From the UHGV virus genome UHGV-2083606: a DNA stretch of 50,236 nt, one strand, 5' to 3'. Position numbers and translations under genes: made by a program. Source of the DNA: a virus. Positions 9,417 to 49,426 of the stretch are shown piece by piece (position 1 is the stretch's first letter; each line of letters opens with the position of its first letter). The notes below the pieces were generated by a model. The model searched no databases, was not told the DNA's origin, and worked only from the letters and a program-made list of their open reading frames with translations.

Positions 9417-9731
9417 CTATTCACCTTTTATAATTTGTTTTGCTAGTTTACCAATGAACTGTTTGTCCATTCCATTCAGCCGACTAAACAAATCAAATCC
9501 TGTTGTCCCATCAAAATCATAGAAAACATATCCATACTGTGTATTTATTCTAATTGTTTTCTGTGAATATTCTTTTTGTTCTCTCACTAACTGTTGCGCC
9601 ACTTCATCAAACTTTTTATCACTCCATTTAGGACTATCCTCTTCATAGTACAAATAACTATGTATTAAAACAACTCTTTGGAGGAAATCTATTTTTAATT
9701 TATCTGTCCAATATACTGGGAAAATATACAT
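9417..9731 (-). CDS. hypothetical protein
   Basis: ORF. Its start ATG directly abuts the TAA stop of gene 9732..9944. Confidence 0.45.
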   Translation of the reverse strand: MYIFPVYWTDKLKIDFLQRVVLIHSYLYYEEDSPKWSDKKFDEVAQQLVREQKEYSQKTIRINTQYGYVFYDFDGTTGFDLFSRLNGMDKQFIGKLAKQIIKGE

Positions 9732-9944
9732 TTATTCCACCTCTATCACATACATTTTTTTATCTAAATCAAACGATATACCTTTTATAAATTTTACTTT
9801 TATACCGTCCAATACACTTAACGACATATCAATAGCTTTTACTCTTTTGCCTGTTGAAAATTCAACTAACACTTGGTCATAATTTCCATACATAAAACCA
9901 GCTATAAATTGTGTTAATGTATCTATTTCAATTTCTTTACACAT
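9732..9944 (-). CDS. hypothetical protein
   Basis: ORF. Confidence 0.45.
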   Translation of the reverse strand: MCKEIEIDTLTQFIAGFMYGNYDQVLVEFSTGKRVKAIDMSLSVLDGIKVKFIKGISFDLDKKMYVIEVE

Positions 9945-9948
9945 TACT

Positions 9949-10161
9949 CTATACCCTCCTGTTCCACTCTTCTATTACTTGTTCAACAGAATTTGTAGCT
10001 ATTAATTCTTGTGACACTCCTTTTTGATAAATCTTATCTACTTTTGAAGAAGTTCTAACTCCACATGATAAACATATAACATGTACACCATTTTCTACAA
10101 ATAAAACTGCTTTACCTCCACAAAACGGACAAGGCTTTAATACTGAATTAATACTTTCCAT
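9949..10161 (-). CDS. Lar-family restriction alleviation protein-like
   Basis: Signature LKPCPFCGGKAV...VICLSCG and C-terminal EEWNRRV, as in Lar_restr_allev family proteins. Confidence 0.55.
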   Translation of the reverse strand: MESINSVLKPCPFCGGKAVLFVENGVHVICLSCGVRTSSKVDKIYQKGVSQELIATNSVEQVIEEWNRRV

Positions 10162-10631: not shown

Positions 10632-10654
10632 AAGGTAGCTTTTTAGGCTACCTT
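10632..10654 (-). terminator. intrinsic terminator
   Basis: 8-bp stem (aaggtagc/gctacctt), 7-nt loop containing the AAA gene stop codon, followed on the minus strand by UUUUAUUAUA. Confidence 0.55.
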
Positions 10655-11785
10655 AAACTCTTCCCTAAATACTTTCATGTATTTGTTATTACAAAGTCTG
10701 TATTTATTAAATGTATTAATTGTATCAGCTCCCAACCCTTTAAATACTGCAATCTCTAACAATGTATTAATATCAATTCCAGCTTTCTCAAGTTTTGTTA
10801 CTGCCATAATACATCTATAACTAAATGTTGCTCTGATTCCATTTGTTCTAGCCTGTGTTCTGAGTTCTTCGATAAAATCAACAAGCTCTGTGTTTCCCTT
10901 TGCAAGGTTAAGTTCTATTCTTCTATCATAATCAAACTTAATTGTAACAAATCTATCAAGTGTTGCTTGGTCAAGAACAAGTCTTCCTGTGTACATTTCA
11001 TCAGCACCACTTCCAACAGTATTTCCAGCCGCTACAACTCTAAAGTTTTCATTTGCTTCTACCCTACCAGTTGGAAACTCAAAATACCTATTAGCAAGTG
11101 CCGCATTGAGTAATACTAATACTTCTGGAATACTTGCATCCATTTAATCAAGGAAGAATAAACCGCCTTTTGTAAACGCTTTATAAAACTCTGTTTCATG
11201 GTAAACACCACCAGCATCAATGAATCCTGTGATTTTATATTCTTGCTGTACACTGTTTGTGAAATAGAAATCCAAACCTAAATCCCATGCAATCTGTTCA
11301 AGTGTAAAGTTCTTTCCTGTTCCTGCATCCCCTACAAGGTAAACAGCTTCATTCTGTTCAATACAAGTTTTAATTAAATTATATTTCTCATGTCTGATTT
11401 CTTTTTCTTCTTCCACTAAAGAAATTTCTTTTACTGGTTCTTCCTTTTTAGGTTTTACTACTGGGTGAATAAGCTCCACAGAAGTTTTATTTGTTTTACT
11501 TTTTCTTCCTTGTGTTTTAAGTTCGTTTGTTGTTCTGTTTTCTGAACGGAAATTTTCCGGCTCTTTATACTGTGTACCATTTCCATTTTCATCAAACGTG
11601 TAATAATAGAAGATGCCTTGAATCTCAAAAACATAAATGCCATTCTTCTGCATTTCTCTAATTTCTTTTGTATGTTTTCTGAATGTTCTTTTCAGTGTTA
11701 CAACACCAAAATCTGTTTTTGTTCTGCACTCCACATGCATATCATCAATCTTTGTTACACTTTCAAATGTTCTTCCTATCATCAT
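10643..11785 (-). pseudogene. AAA_5 (MoxR/CbbQ/McrB-like) ATPase reading frame interrupted by an in-frame TAA exactly at the Walker B glutamate position; also has a non-canonical Walker A
   Basis: ORFs 11144..11785 and 10643..11143 are in the same frame, separated only by TAA. Read through, the junction gives GGLFFLD-TAA-MDASIPEVLVLLNAALANRYFEFP...FRVVAAGN, which is the hhhhDE Walker B, sensor-1 and downstream helix pattern of AAA_5. Walker A reads GDAGTGKN, with Asn where Ser/Thr is invariant. Confidence 0.6.
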
Positions 11786-11877
11786 TTATGTTCTCCTTAT
11801 TTGTTATCTGACTTATTTGTTTGTTCCTTACATCTATTATGATATACCAAACAAACAAATAAGTCAATAGTTTTGTT

Positions 11878-12675
11878 TTAATTTATTTTGTATTTTTCAA
11901 TGTTTGTTATCTCTTCTTCTATAACATTTCTTGGAACATAATATTCGCCTTTGTATAAATGTTTTACTTCTTCCCACCCTGTACATTGACCATAACCGCT
12001 ACCAAAATCTTTGCAATCATCTAATCTTTCAATCAATCCGAATACTATTCTTCTAAACATACTCGGATGTGCTAACGGAAATGCAAGCTGTTTTAAATTC
12101 ATACGCTGTGAGCTGTCTTTTACTTTCACTCTAATATCAATATAACCCTTTGACTTTCTGCTTCTTGTTACAACACTAACAAATACATTACAACGCATAC
12201 CTTGTTTTTCTAACTTATCTACAGCCTGTAAGAACTTTACGCTTTCACGCATCATTGTTTGTGTTGATGTTGCACCGCTATAACCAAAATCTTTTGTTAT
12301 GTTTACAACTTTCTGTTTTTGAACAACTTTTTTATTGTTTATCATGTTTGTTGGAATACCTTGTAAATATCTTGGAACACTACATTGAAATCCTGCAATA
12401 TCATAAAACGCTTTGCTTCTATATCCATTGTTATTCACATTAACTTTAGCATCCAGTTTACTTTTTAACTGTTTTGCTCCATCTTCCCAACCATGAAACA
12501 ATAACTCCCTTGCTTCTTCCATTGTATGTGTTCCTGTAAAACCATAATTATTACTATCAGAAGCATGGTATCTTTGATAGGGCAATGTTCTTTCTGTTAT
12601 ATCAATATAATTAACAACATCTGCTATTGAATTAAAACTAATATTTATATCATTGTTTGTTTCTGTTCTTTTCAT
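11878..12675 (-). CDS. hypothetical protein (265 aa) immediately upstream of the AAA_5 gene
   Basis: ORF with AAGGAG ribosome-binding site and its own promoter. No recognisable motif; no clear MIDAS/VWA motif. Confidence 0.55.
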   Translation of the reverse strand: MKRTETNNDINISFNSIADVVNYIDITERTLPYQRYHASDSNNYGFTGTHTMEEARELLFHGWEDGAKQLKSKLDAKVNVNNNGYRSKAFYDIAGFQCSVPRYLQGIPTNMINNKKVVQKQKVVNITKDFGYSGATSTQTMMRESVKFLQAVDKLEKQGMRCNVFVSVVTRSRKSKGYIDIRVKVKDSSQRMNLKQLAFPLAHPSMFRRIVFGLIERLDDCKDFGSGYGQCTGWEEVKHLYKGEYYVPRNVIEEEITNIEKYKIN

Positions 12676-12716: not shown

Positions 12717-12745
12717 TATATTACACTATTTGTTTTGTTTTGTCA
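12717..12745 (-). promoter_or_regulatory. putative sigma70-type promoter (TTGACA-17-TAATAT)
   Basis: Minus-strand hexamers directly downstream of the RuvC terminator. Coordinates approximate. Confidence 0.4.
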
Positions 12746-12766
12746 AATACTTTTTATAACAAAAAA

Positions 12767-12788
12767 AGGAACGCTTTTATACGTTCCC
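12767..12788 (-). terminator. intrinsic terminator
   Basis: GGAACG/CGTTCC stem with 8-nt loop, followed on the minus strand by a run of 7 U. Directly after the RuvC stop. Coordinates approximate. Confidence 0.55.
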
Positions 12789-13402
12789 TAAAATGTTTCT
12801 TCTTTTAGTTTTTGTTTTGTTTTAGGAACGAACCCATACATAGCAATACAATAACTATCTGCTAAATCATCATTTATTTTACACGGTACTTTCTCAGCTC
12901 CTATTTTAACGTTTATAACGCCTTTCTTTCCCCTACCCTTATATTCCTCGGCTATATACTTTAAAAGTCCTTTCTGCTTCAAATAAAGGATTGTAGGATA
13001 CTTGTTAGGATTTATTCCATATTTATTCTCTTTTGGTTTACTTGTTCCAACAACTGCGTTCTTCCAACTTTTGGTGTCTACACTGTACACTTTTATGTCG
13101 TATCCTAAAAATACATCCAATATTGTTACAATCAAACCGCCTGTTGTAATTAAATACTGTGAACTCATATGTCCACCGCTGAACGTTCTTATTCGCTCTA
13201 TAATGCATTTTATTTCTATAGACTTATACTTCCTTAATAGCTTATCTAAAATGGATTCTAGGTCACTTCTAAGGTCTTTACGCTTATCATAGTTATTTTT
13301 ACATCCATCAAAGTTTACACTATACATTTTAATTAGCTTTTTATCTTCTAGTACTGTGATTCCAGTTCGTGTATAACTTTCATCAATTCCTATTACAACC
13401 AT
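12788..13402 (-). CDS. RuvC-family Holliday junction resolvase
   Basis: N-terminal VIGIDESYTRTG (RuvC GIDPG..TG catalytic Asp/Glu motif) and C-terminal NDDLADSYCIA (RuvC DAADALAIA-like). Confidence 0.75.
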   Translation of the reverse strand: MVVIGIDESYTRTGITVLEDKKLIKMYSVNFDGCKNNYDKRKDLRSDLESILDKLLRKYKSIEIKCIIERIRTFSGGHMSSQYLITTGGLIVTILDVFLGYDIKVYSVDTKSWKNAVVGTSKPKENKYGINPNKYPTILYLKQKGLLKYIAEEYKGRGKKGVINVKIGAEKVPCKINDDLADSYCIAMYGFVPKTKQKLKEETF

Positions 13403-16517: not shown

Positions 16518-18044
16518 CTACCTCGCCATTAATGTGCTATTATATTTTACTACCCTACTCATATATTTATGTTTGTTAAATTCAAGTGCACCCTGTTCTT
16601 TCAGAATATCAATCACCCTTGTTGTAACACTTCTTCCTTTGCATCTATCATAGAAATTATCGTAAGACTTGAATACACCCTTTCTGCGCTCTTCCTCAAT
16701 GGTTTCTGCGGCTTTTTCTCCAATGCCCTTAATAATACTCAACCCTTGCTGTATAACGTCCTCTCCATCCATTTTACGCAATGAGGTTTTAGCTGAGTAG
16801 TTTACATGCGGCAACATAACCACAGCACCATCTTTTACCGCAAACTGTGAATACTTAAATATATCTGCATCATTGTCTGCATACTTCATTTTCACATACC
16901 AAAACTGTGTTGGGTAATGTACTTTATAGTACATTTGGTCAATACTAATAAGCGCATACGCTGTGCTATGACCGGCGTTAAACCCATAGATTAGCATTGA
17001 CGCCCATATTGAATTAGTTTGTTCTTTTGTTAATCCCTCTTGCTTGCATCCTCTGTAAAAGTCTTTCTTCATTTGTTCGATAATTGGAACGTATTCTGGT
17101 TTTGTTAAATTCTCCGCTTTCTTCATAATCTTTAACATATCGAAACTCTGCTGTGGTGTTAAGTGTCCAACTTTCTGCGCTACTTCAACTGTTTGCTCTT
17201 GATATAACATTGTTCCATATGTTGCTTTTGTGTATTTGTAATATGGTGTTGTTGTATCCACCTCTCCTGACAACTTATTATGTGCATATGTTTCATGCAT
17301 GTGCAACTGTAATGGTGCTGGTCTGTTTAATGCGTTCACCGCTATGATATCATTAACACAATCACACTGAATCATATCAAGAATCTTTTTAGGTGCTGAC
17401 TTCTCCATCTGAAATATTCCGTCTGTTCTCCCCTCTCTAAATCCCTCTATAACCTCTTTGCTTTCTTCATCTTCTTCTGTTATTGTATGCCCTGTTTTCT
17501 CTCTAAGCTCACGCATTTCCGACATTGTTTTAAGTCCAAGCATGTCAAACTTTACACAATTAATATGCTCTAAATCATCTTTGTCAAAACAACTGCTTAA
17601 TGCTCCTGTCTTTCTATCTCTCATAATAATACAAGTATAATCACTTATATCTGTTCCAACCACAGCAACCCCAGCCGCATGTTTTCCAAGATACTTTATT
17701 TTACCGTAAAGTTTTGAGAAATGTTTTATAATGTTATCATACTTTCCGTTAAATTCTTCTGTTCTGTATCCATTCAATAAGTTACTCATGTTCAGTTCAT
17801 CATCTACTATAAATCCCTTAATATATGACTTAATTTCAGCAATAACCTTTTTGTTTTCATCTGCTTCAAACCAATCAACATCTTTTGTTGTTTTTAATTT
17901 GCAAACACTTGCCAAATCATTCACAAGATTATCAACTCCATACATCCCATAAGAACAAATCTGTATTGCTTTGTTTGGATATTTGTTTATAACATAATCA
18001 ATTACTTCCTGTCTCCTATCTCGTTCGAAATCTAAGTCAATATC
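16518..18044 (-). CDS. dnaE: DNA polymerase III alpha (DnaE-type) exon 2
   Basis: Frame open upstream of the annotated ATG back to 18044. Encodes DIDLDFERDRRQEVIDYV...GKHAAGVAVVG...FDMLGLKTMS, which are the DnaE palm and finger motifs. Confidence 0.8.
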   Translation of the reverse strand, partial: DIDLDFERDRRQEVIDYVINKYPNKAIQICSYGMYGVDNLVNDLASVCKLKTTKDVDWFEADENKKVIAEIKSYIKGFIVDDELNMSNLLNGYRTEEFNGKYDNIIKHFSKLYGKIKYLGKHAAGVAVVGTDISDYTCIIMRDRKTGALSSCFDKDDLEHINCVKFDMLGLKTMSEMRELREKTGHTITEEDEESKEVIEGFREGRTDGIFQMEKSAPKKILDMIQCDCVNDIIAVNALNRPAPLQLHMHETYAHNKLSGEVDTTTPYYKYTKATYGTMLYQEQTVEVAQKVGHLTPQQSFDMLKIMKKAENLTKPEYVPIIEQMKKDFYRGCKQEGLTKEQTNSIWASMLIYGFNAGHSTAYALISIDQMYYKVHYPTQFWYVKMKYADNDADIFKYSQFAVKDGAVVMLPHVNYSAKTSLRKMDGEDVIQQGLSIIKGIGEKAAETIEEERRKGVFKSYDNFYDRCKGRSVTTRVIDILKEQGALEFNKHKYMSRVVKYNSTLMAR

Positions 18045-18387
18045 CTACCTTAGTCGTTCGTTTCCAAACTATCAAAGCTAGACTATATCTTCCACTACTG
18101 TGGCATTCGCACTTCGGAATGGTGCTTATCTCCATCCCTACACTTGTTACTCTCTTCACAAACTAGTCGTTACACCTTCATATACTACTGTATATGCTTG
18201 GCACGGTATTCCCTCTATCTCACCTTCACTGGTTTAGGGTTTCTTAGTCAGATTATTCGTCTATGGTCTATGCCCTATTATCCTGTTGTAACATTTCAAT
18301 AAGGAGTCTTATTTTTCTGATACCGTTAGCATATTATAATAATACACACCATTAAGCAATGTTCACGAATGATGCCCAATTAAGTTT
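18045..18387 (-). ncRNA. group I self-splicing intron (no ORF) interrupting dnaE
   Basis: 343 nt with higher GC and many stops in all frames. The 5' splice site lies after U; the intron ends in G. Internal guide sequence GGGCA can pair with exon UGCCU, giving a U.G wobble at the splice site. R-like element UCUGACUAAG and S-like element AAGAUAUAGUCUA are present (P7 GACUA/UAGUC). The exons join in frame to give ...KKSLP|DIDLDF. Confidence 0.7.
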
Positions 18388-19581
18388 AGGCAATGACTTC
18401 TTTTCCTTTCTCATAAATCTACTAAAATCTAGGTTATATTTTATGCTGTCTACTTCTGTGATTCCTACTGCATAAGCTACAAGACAATTACAAACAGAAC
18501 CTCTTCCCTTTCCTGTTTCAATTCCATTTTCTTTCGCCCATGTTATATAATCTCTAACAATAAGAAAATAATCTGCAAAACCATGGTAATTAATTACTTC
18601 CAATTCTTCTTTACATCTTTTCCAATATTCCTTATTCCATTTGTTTCTGTTTTTCAATCCCTGTTTTGTTAATGTTTCAAGTTGTTTTGCTCCATTATCT
18701 GATATCTTAGGAAGTTCTAATTCTAAACCATCTAGTATGTTATCTTCTACTTTATTATATATTTCTTTCATGTTATCTGCAAATCGTTCTGCAAGTTCCA
18801 TTGGTCTTTTAAACTTCTTTTTATAGATGTTCGCAAATCGTTCTGTTATCTCATATTCTGTAGGCATGTACCTTTCACTGTATGTTCTTTTTACATCCAA
18901 TGTTGTTTTTCCGATTTCATGCATTTTACAATATGTATCAAAATCTTCTTTGCTTCCAAAATGTGAATCACTTGTTAGAATACATTTTATTTTCTTTCTT
19001 TTTGCCATTCCCATAAGTTCATAGTCTGTCCTTTGCTGTGTACCTTGTGCATCTATCTTATATGGCTGTATTTCAACATATAAATCTTCTCCGAATATTT
19101 CTTTGAATTTATCTAACAAACGTTCTGCTGTGCTTCTATGACCATTTAAAATAGCTTGTGACGTTGCGCTTGCTATACAAGCTGTTGTACATATAAGTCC
19201 ATCTGAATACTTTTCTAACAACTTAAAATCAACTATTGGCTTATAGTAGAATTGTTTTGTGTTTGCTTCTGTCATAATGTGACATAAATTTTTGTATCCT
19301 TGCAAATTCTTCACAAACAAATTCAAATGATAACTCTTTCTTTTTGGATTTTCTTTATTGAATTTTGGTTGGAAATATATTTCGCATCCCATAACTGGTT
19401 TTATTCCAACTTCATTACATGCTTGGTAATGTTTTATAAGTCCACTGATAGAACCATGGTTGCTTATCCCTAATGCTCTATATCCTAATTCTTTTGCATG
19501 TTTTGCTAACTGTTCTGGCTTACCGAATCCATCAAACAATGAATATTCATCGTGTCTATGTAAATCGAAAAAATTTCCCAT
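18388..19581 (-). CDS. dnaE: DNA polymerase III alpha (DnaE-type) exon 1 (PHP domain)
   Basis: FDLHRHDEYSLFDG PHP motif and ADYFLIVRDYITWAKENGIETGKGRGS. Ends ...LDFSRFMRKEKKSLP; the last 11 codons of the track ORF are intron-encoded. Confidence 0.8.
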
Positions 19582-49030: not shown

Positions 49031-49103
49031 TGGAGCATGTGGGACTCGAACCTACAACTTACCGCTTATGAGGCGGTTGCTCTAACCATTGAACTAATGC
49101 TCC
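49031..49103 (-). tRNA. tRNA-Met: tRNA with CAU anticodon (Met, or Ile2 if lysidine-modified)
   Basis: Manual fold: 7-bp acceptor GGAGCAT/ATGCTCC, D-arm GTTC/GAGC, anticodon stem ACCGC/GCGGT with loop CTCATAA, T-arm with GGTTCGAGTCC. No encoded CCA. Confidence 0.75.
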
Positions 49104-49190: not shown

Positions 49191-49262
49191 ACTGCCTAGG
49201 TTGGATTCGAACCAACGAATGCAGGAGTCAAATTCCTGTGCCTTTCCACTTGGCTACTAGGC
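49191..49262 (-). tRNA. tRNA-Gln: tRNA-Gln (UUG)
   Basis: Manual fold: perfect 7-bp acceptor, anticodon stem CAGGA/TCCTG with loop ATTTGAC, T-arm GTTGG-TTCGAAT-CCAAC. Confidence 0.7.
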
Positions 49263-49426
49263 AATGTTATTGTTTTCATTACGGCAATAATTGCTCACAA
49301 TAACTTTTATGAAAGAAATAATTTTAAGTTGTGTTTTAATGACTTTAACACCTGTCAAACTTTTCAGCAAGTTCCTTTGATATTTTGAAATCACTTCATT
49401 TGTCTCTGTTCTGATTCTGTATGTTT

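Follow-up and report, generated by a model that had tools for sequence, protein, structure and literature searches.

The window examined here is a stretch of 50,236 nt, the virus genome record UHGV-2083606, from a ~50-kb siphovirus-like gut phage related to the Clostridium_AP phages CS266P1-4. On its minus strand, two open reading frames (ORFs) are parted by a single TAA, and when they are read as one protein this TAA stands exactly where an AAA+ ATPase carries the catalytic glutamate of Walker B. Does the stop reflect a programmed or evolved arrangement, or a gene that was broken recently? A sequence-only reading of the locus had listed a recently decayed gene, a deliberately split protein and site-specific stop-codon readthrough as possible explanations, and had regarded both catalytic signatures, Walker A as well as Walker B, as degenerate. 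The interrupted gene has the following features.

11785..11144, minus strand: 5' fragment of the AAA+ gene, 213 aa, from ATG 11785 to TAA 11146..11144; by the layout of P0001, an intact homolog modelled with AlphaFold, residues 1-80 are its N-terminal beta-rich domain and 84-130 its disordered linker, followed by Walker A and by the Walker-B strand as far as Asp213.
11332..11309, minus strand: Walker A GDAGTGKN, codons 152-159, with Asn159 at the canonical Ser/Thr position.
11146..11144, minus strand: TAA ochre codon at the Walker-B catalytic Glu codon, which is GAA in all relatives.
11143..10643, minus strand: 3' fragment of the AAA+ gene, 166 aa, starting at the native Met215 codon and holding helix alpha3, sensor-1 Asn255, conserved Arg268 and Arg278, and the lid domain with Arg324.

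The minus-strand sequence bore out this layout and the Walker A motif GDAGTGKN, both as first described. The 213-aa ORF ends in GGT TTA TTC TTC CTT GAT TAA (...K-G-G-L-F-F-L-D-stop), and ATG 11143 follows the TAA directly, in the frame of the upstream ORF. ATG 11785 is preceded by a strong SD sequence, AAGGAG, at a distance of 7 nt, and translation from this codon must end after Asp213. Where the gene family has a complete hhhhDE Walker B with its catalytic Glu, the window allele has LFFLD-stop; the sensor-1 Asn and the conserved arginines (N255, R268, R278 and R324) are all present in the 3' ORF.

Profile searches identified the two ORFs as parts of one domain. With Glu put at the stop, the fused 380-aa protein matched Pfam AAA_5 with 41.5 bits (cutoff 22) over profile positions 2-139 of 139; the halves searched singly stayed below the cutoff (13.6 bits or no match). 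The fused protein also matched phrog_249 at 4e-58, and the separate halves mapped to positions 50-200 and 202-365 of that profile, so exactly one profile position is absent. The proposal of a single gene was to be given up if the ORFs did not align jointly to one AAA_5 domain. They did align in this way, and profiles and relatives agree on one AAA_5 gene with a single GAA to TAA change at the Walker-B Glu.

In the AlphaFold model of P0001 (pLDDT 87), residues 1-80 form a beta-rich N-terminal domain, which is followed by a disordered linker (84-130), the AAA+ core (131-283) and a helical lid (288-376). Foldseek searches with this model returned NorQ (9qh8, 9qh4) and CbbQ (6l1q, 5c3c) as the best matches (E 6e-14 to 1e-12, TM-target ~0.7), ahead of dynein, Rea1 and McrB for the core plus lid. 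Judged by its modelled structure, the ATPase is closest to NorQ/CbbQ, of the MoxR class. NorQ and CbbQ are MoxR-class ATPases that work with vWA partners (NorD and CbbO). The phage ATPase resembles them in its Pfam AAA_5 core and a weak CbbQ_C match in the lid; its gene forms a conserved two-gene cassette with that of a putative partner, whose best structural matches are the Rea1 MIDAS domain and the NorD vWA domain. Unlike NorQ and CbbQ, the phage ATPase has GKN instead of GKT in Walker A, an additional N-terminal domain with a long linker, and a gene that lies in a replication module and is broken in the window. The additional part corresponds to residues 1-80 of P0001 (window 11546-11785), a beta-rich domain that a disordered linker of ~45 residues, rich in Lys and Glu, connects to the AAA+ core; NorQ and CbbQ have no such domain.

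Viral cobS/cobT pairs offer a second comparison. The match to phrog_249 (PHROG 249, 'porphyrin biosynthesis') links the phage ATPase to these pairs, and a weak PDB match to CobS (9ujv, 3e-3) was also obtained. Two-gene cobST-like clusters are widespread in tailed viruses (PMC8651126). However, the ATPase is not a CobS equivalog, because its score against NCBIfam CobS (TIGR01650), 22.1 bits, is far under the cutoff of 558.55. In contrast to cobS/cobT, the putative partner is a DUF7192 protein rather than CobT, the order is partner first and ATPase second, and nothing ties the pair to cobalt chelation. Searches of the DUF7192 neighbour found neither a CobT nor any NCBIfam match, and PADLOC returned no meaningful defence-system match for the ATPase and the DUF7192 protein.

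The asparagine of Walker A required a comparison across the family. A phmmer search of 1.84 billion representatives delineated the ATPase family as 7,869 clusters (50% identity) at E <= 1e-3. In the 149 best 50%-identity representatives (P0260-P0408), the residue after GK was Asn in 125, Ser in 20 and Gly in 4, and the D-E pair was kept in all 149. All 80 IMG/VR relatives (L023-L102) carry GKN. In an alignment of 46 sequences reaching down to 34% identity, K158, D213, E214, N255, R268, R278 and R324 were invariant. Set against the Walker A consensus GxxGxGK[S/T], the family keeps the Gly residues and Lys158 without exception and has Asn at the S/T position; Asn159 aligns with the Thr of Midasin GKT. 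Because Asn prevails in the representatives and in all 80 relatives while the other catalytic residues are kept, GKN is not a sign of decay. By this comparison of sequences it represents the ancestral and conserved wild type in a family that is otherwise complete in its catalytic residues, and it is unrelated to the lesion; the view that both catalytic signatures are degenerate does not stand, since GKN is the family norm. The Ras S17N-type P-loop substitution is also a change of GKS to GKN, and there too Asn takes the Mg2+-coordinating Ser/Thr position. Unlike in Ras S17N, the Asn of this family is the conserved wild type in thousands of proteins with all other catalytic residues, and it is presumably compatible with activity.

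The stop codon has a very different distribution. Exact copies of the 213-aa and 166-aa products were found on 5-7 long contig records (ENA, JGI and Logan) with lengths from 38,979 to 51,379 bp. One of them, ENA ERZ650692 NODE_649 (38,979 bp, 17x coverage), matches the window along 20,501 nt at 100% identity, and the TAA-bearing records all represent the same strain. Given its presence on several contig records from three sources, the TAA allele is not an assembly quirk of the UHGV-2083606 record, and it survives different assemblers.

Outside this strain the codon is intact. P0001, a 380-aa homolog with 98% identity whose 90%-identity cluster has 183 members, has Glu at the site, and its DNA reads GAT GAA ATG where the window reads GAT TAA ATG. 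Glu was present in 14/14 aligned proteins, and GAA was found in relatives L001 and L002 and in 12/12 IMG/VR contigs matching the surrounding 32-mer. The IMG/VR relatives (53-98% identity) were all uninterrupted (80/80), with D-E and with no internal stop or frameshift. The back-translated pattern FFLD-TAR-[M/I]DASIPEV, with TAA or TAG at the Glu codon, gave 0 matches in JGI metagenome contigs and IMG/VR viral contigs. The comparison with homologous phages that had been proposed, on whether GAA or TAA is conserved, thus shows GAA in every relative and TAA as private to one strain.

Candidates for further interrupted copies were rejected. P0128 (166 aa, 'CobS') was considered as a second, diverged TAA lineage, but JGI contig L020 has GAT GAA ATG and is chimeric or rearranged upstream, and the Logan contigs of P0128 (L017-L019) merely start 1 nt ahead of the ATG. 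The single in-frame stop seen in L080 marks the natural C-terminus of its protein. As a separate observation, L017, L018 and L019 (Logan SRR35196830, SRR30480142 and SRR25638848) all begin at 'AATGGATG', 2 nt past the G/T site; such shared contig starts in three independent runs suggest assembly-graph branching at or near the Glu codon in other samples.

The mutation is a G to T change at window position 11146 (gene G640T). Between the window and its nearest intact relative, IMGVR_UViG_3300045988_072896, there are 5 nt differences over gene nt 79-1143: four lie close together at nt 82-129 and the remaining one is G640T, which is thus the sole difference from nt 130 to the gene end (1,014 nt). 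The 166-aa 3' fragment is identical to that of this relative. With no secondary decay in the gene since G640T, the event must be very recent. The dN/dS of the ATPase gene against relatives is 0.03-0.09; by this measure, purifying selection on it is otherwise strong, and the gene is normally needed. A single step can turn 144 of the 380 codons of the restored gene into a stop, by 170 mutational paths in all; 1 of these strikes Glu214 and 5 make a stop abutting an ATG. A stop at exactly the catalytic Glu beside an ATG is a mild a posteriori coincidence, and one that a motif-scanning reader would naturally notice.

Two sister strains carry other disruptive alleles of the gene. In L022:2372-3511 (ENA ERZ28662686 scaffold_389; 4 contig records), a 1-nt deletion in an A-run at ~gene nt 108 (~codon 37) causes a -1 frameshift within the N-terminal domain, and the gene caller places a new start at Met45 (336 aa). 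In L021:2501-3496 (Logan SRR10682112; 2 contig records), 10-nt direct repeats, TGATGAAATG, bound an in-frame deletion of 147 nt that removes residues 215-263 (49 aa: helix alpha3, beta4 and sensor 1). The copies of this repeat correspond to window 11141-11150 and 10994-11003, and the first window copy carries the TAA. The frameshift and the deletion indicate that knock-out alleles of the ATPase gene segregate at low frequency in nature.

The ATPase gene is the second of two genes in a cassette with the following further features.

12789..12766, minus strand: terminator-like hairpin upstream of the cassette.
12718..12746, minus strand: promoter-like TTGACA-17-TAATAT ahead of the DUF7192 gene, a consensus match only.
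11878..12675, minus strand: intact gene for a DUF7192 protein (phrog_1909), 265 aa, a divergent vWA-like putative partner.
11839..11867, minus strand: promoter-like TTGACT-17-TATCAT ahead of the AAA+ gene, a consensus match only.
10654..10632, minus strand: terminator-like hairpin overlapping the AAA+ gene end and closing the two-gene cassette.

The 265-aa gene had been described as lying between a terminator and a promoter of its own; instead, the terminator-like hairpins bracket both genes. The accompanying suggestion that its product may be a partner of the ATPase gained support: the DUF7192 gene is directly upstream of the ATPase gene in 72/72 loci with upstream DNA, and its product is very likely the partner. 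The DUF7192 model (pLDDT 79.5) gave NorD as its top two Foldseek matches, of modest score (prob 0.75 and 0.60), and the MIDAS motif DxSxS shows no conservation, so the assignment of a vWA/NorD-like fold from this model is tentative. We read the cassette as a pair of a MoxR-type ATPase and a vWA-like adaptor. It sits in a replication/recombination module with a primase, a split DnaE, RecA, a Cas4-like exonuclease and a RuvC-like resolvase.

Other genes of this region deserve mention in their own right. The DnaE-type DNA polymerase III alpha gene (minus strand, 16518-19581) is split into 19581..18352 (409 aa, PHP and N-part) and 17945..16518 (475 aa, finger/HHH). The 406-nt gap between these ORFs holds no sizeable ORF in the window; relative L001 has an HNH_3 endonuclease ORF there (L001:2496-2984), and no Rfam intron reached the gathering threshold in the gap. 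Among the small minus-strand genes downstream of the cassette (9417-10161) are those for a Lar-like restriction-alleviation protein (10161..9949, 70 aa) and an Nlig-Ia-like protein (9731..9417, 104 aa), both assignments being taken from the Pfam marks of L016, an identical contig.

Taken at its most probable, the TAA is a genuine ochre mutation, recent and private to one strain, by which an accessory phage MoxR-class ATPase is inactivated or crippled, with some reinitiation possible; we hold this account with good confidence. Among the three explanations proposed at the outset, the recently decayed gene fits best. Under this account, the change of GAA to TAA at window 11146 would have struck the gene for a NorQ/CbbQ/CobS-like AAA+ ATPase that is normally paired with a vWA-like DUF7192 protein. 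The 213-aa fragment retains the N-domain, the P-loop and the Walker-B Asp and lacks the catalytic Glu, sensor 1, the arginine residues and the lid. Since the stop abuts the native Met215 codon, reinitiation is possible, and some ribosomes may restart at UAAAUG to make the 166-aa remainder. UAAAUG is a classic geometry for bacterial translational coupling and reinitiation, and reinitiation was reportedly addressed by Adhin and van Duin in 1990 and in studies of T4 rIIB and lacI.

The start of the second ORF differs from the true starts in the cassette, which have AAGGAG at 7-8 nt spacing. No SD sequence at functional spacing (5-12 nt) was present in the 30 nt upstream of ATG 11143, and the sole purine-rich stretch there, AAAGGCGG, is ~21 nt away. 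With no SD sequence and with neither fragment being a complete ATPase fold, the most likely outcome is loss or severe reduction of function. The gene lost would be an accessory gene of the replication module whose loss the strain tolerates. The allele resembles classical phage ochre mutants (T4 rIIB, MS2 coat), in which a one-base UAA lies inside a conserved gene and a start codon abuts the stop. It differs from them in being a natural allele of a metagenome-assembled gut phage and not a laboratory mutant. One finding speaks against a null allele: the gene is under strong purifying selection, with 0/80 relatives broken, and yet TAA is the consensus base in several assemblies of the strain. A null allele of such a gene should be costly, and its place at consensus means that some function may persist or that the allele may be positively selected. 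The mild coincidence of the site is a further point against this account.

The consensus state of TAA despite this selection is also an argument for a functional split, in which the UAA stop and AUG reinitiation would yield two polypeptides that reassemble into an ATP-binding, hydrolysis-dead AAA+ protein lacking only Glu214. Such a protein would have been selected in this strain, for example as a trap or regulator, or as an escape from host defence sensing an active ATPase. The coupling geometry of the UAAAUG junction, the loss of the Glu codon only, the opening of the second ORF at the native Met215 and the independent disruptive alleles in close relatives (L021, L022) also agree with it. 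Nevertheless, comparative support for a deliberately split protein is missing: all relatives have GAA, the split is confined to one strain and conserved nowhere else, and the second ORF has no ribosome-binding site of its own in the form of an SD sequence. The mutation is too young for any selection signature. In the model, the cut falls inside the alpha-beta-alpha core just after beta3, where neither fragment would be an autonomous fold. The N-domain frameshift of L022 and the 49-aa sensor-1 deletion of L021 are different lesions, and as such they point to simple loss and not to a Glu-less design. We therefore regard a functional split as unlikely.

Still less probable is an artefact of sequencing, assembly or library preparation, with a true base G and an intact gene. 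The difference from the nearest relative is one base, and the TAA records appear to be one strain (100% identity) and could stem from one sample or library. Against this, the same allele is on 5-7 contig records from three sources and at least two assemblers (a SPAdes NODE at 17x and Logan), and a consensus substitution error at 17x is unlikely for Illumina-type data.

About as improbable, in our estimate, is a natural 'Walker-B trap', in which either two co-translated fragments or a rare E to Q product of Gln readthrough would bind ATP and the vWA-like partner without hydrolysis and would be favoured in this strain. If it were true, evasion of a host defence triggered by the active ATPase could serve as an example of the benefit, and the sister-strain frameshift and deletion would be parallel escapes.

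The last alternative, readthrough or suppression, was assessed from codon usage, tRNAs and RNA elements. The phage encodes only two tRNAs.

49031-49103, minus strand: tRNA-Met(CAT).
49191-49264, minus strand: tRNA-Gln(TTG).

None of the phage tRNAs is a suppressor tRNA. A tRNA-Gln(UUG) is near-cognate to UAA and is not a suppressor; Gln tRNAs read UAA as near-cognates at a low level, and bacteria typically show a basal rate of UAA readthrough far under 1%. TAA ends 35/60 minus-strand ORFs of at least 100 aa, including the ATPase gene itself and the DUF7192 gene, and is the commonest stop of the phage, which rules out genome-wide TAA recoding. Other same-frame ORF neighbours, considered as signs of recoding, are separate genes (Dit and a minor tail protein; portal and a head morphogenesis protein). 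The Rfam search of the window found no intron and no recoding element. Stop usage, the tRNAs, the Rfam result and the missing SD sequence together leave nothing that points to a programmed event. Reading of the UAA by the near-cognate tRNA-Gln(UUG), giving a full-length protein of the Walker-B E to Q type, or by a host suppressor is the least credible alternative. The phage tRNA-Gln(TTG) gene speaks for such site-specific readthrough; against it, there is no suppressor anticodon, TAA is the main stop, and the stop is not conserved in relatives, which all have GAA (TAR pattern 0).

As a young nonsense allele in one strain, the stop codon itself has very little significance. The TAA allele is useful mainly as a natural knock-out, which shows that the phage can do without the ATPase at least in short-term propagation. 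Of more use are two by-products, the GKN trait of the family and the tentative vWA-like assignment of DUF7192. The former is an uncommon P-loop variant that has become fixed in a very large family of phage AAA+ proteins, with Asn nearly universal and the other catalytic residues kept. Together, these facts about the family lead to a hypothesis that can be tested for two abundant but uncharacterised genes of gut phages, namely that they may encode a MoxR-type remodeller and its adaptor.
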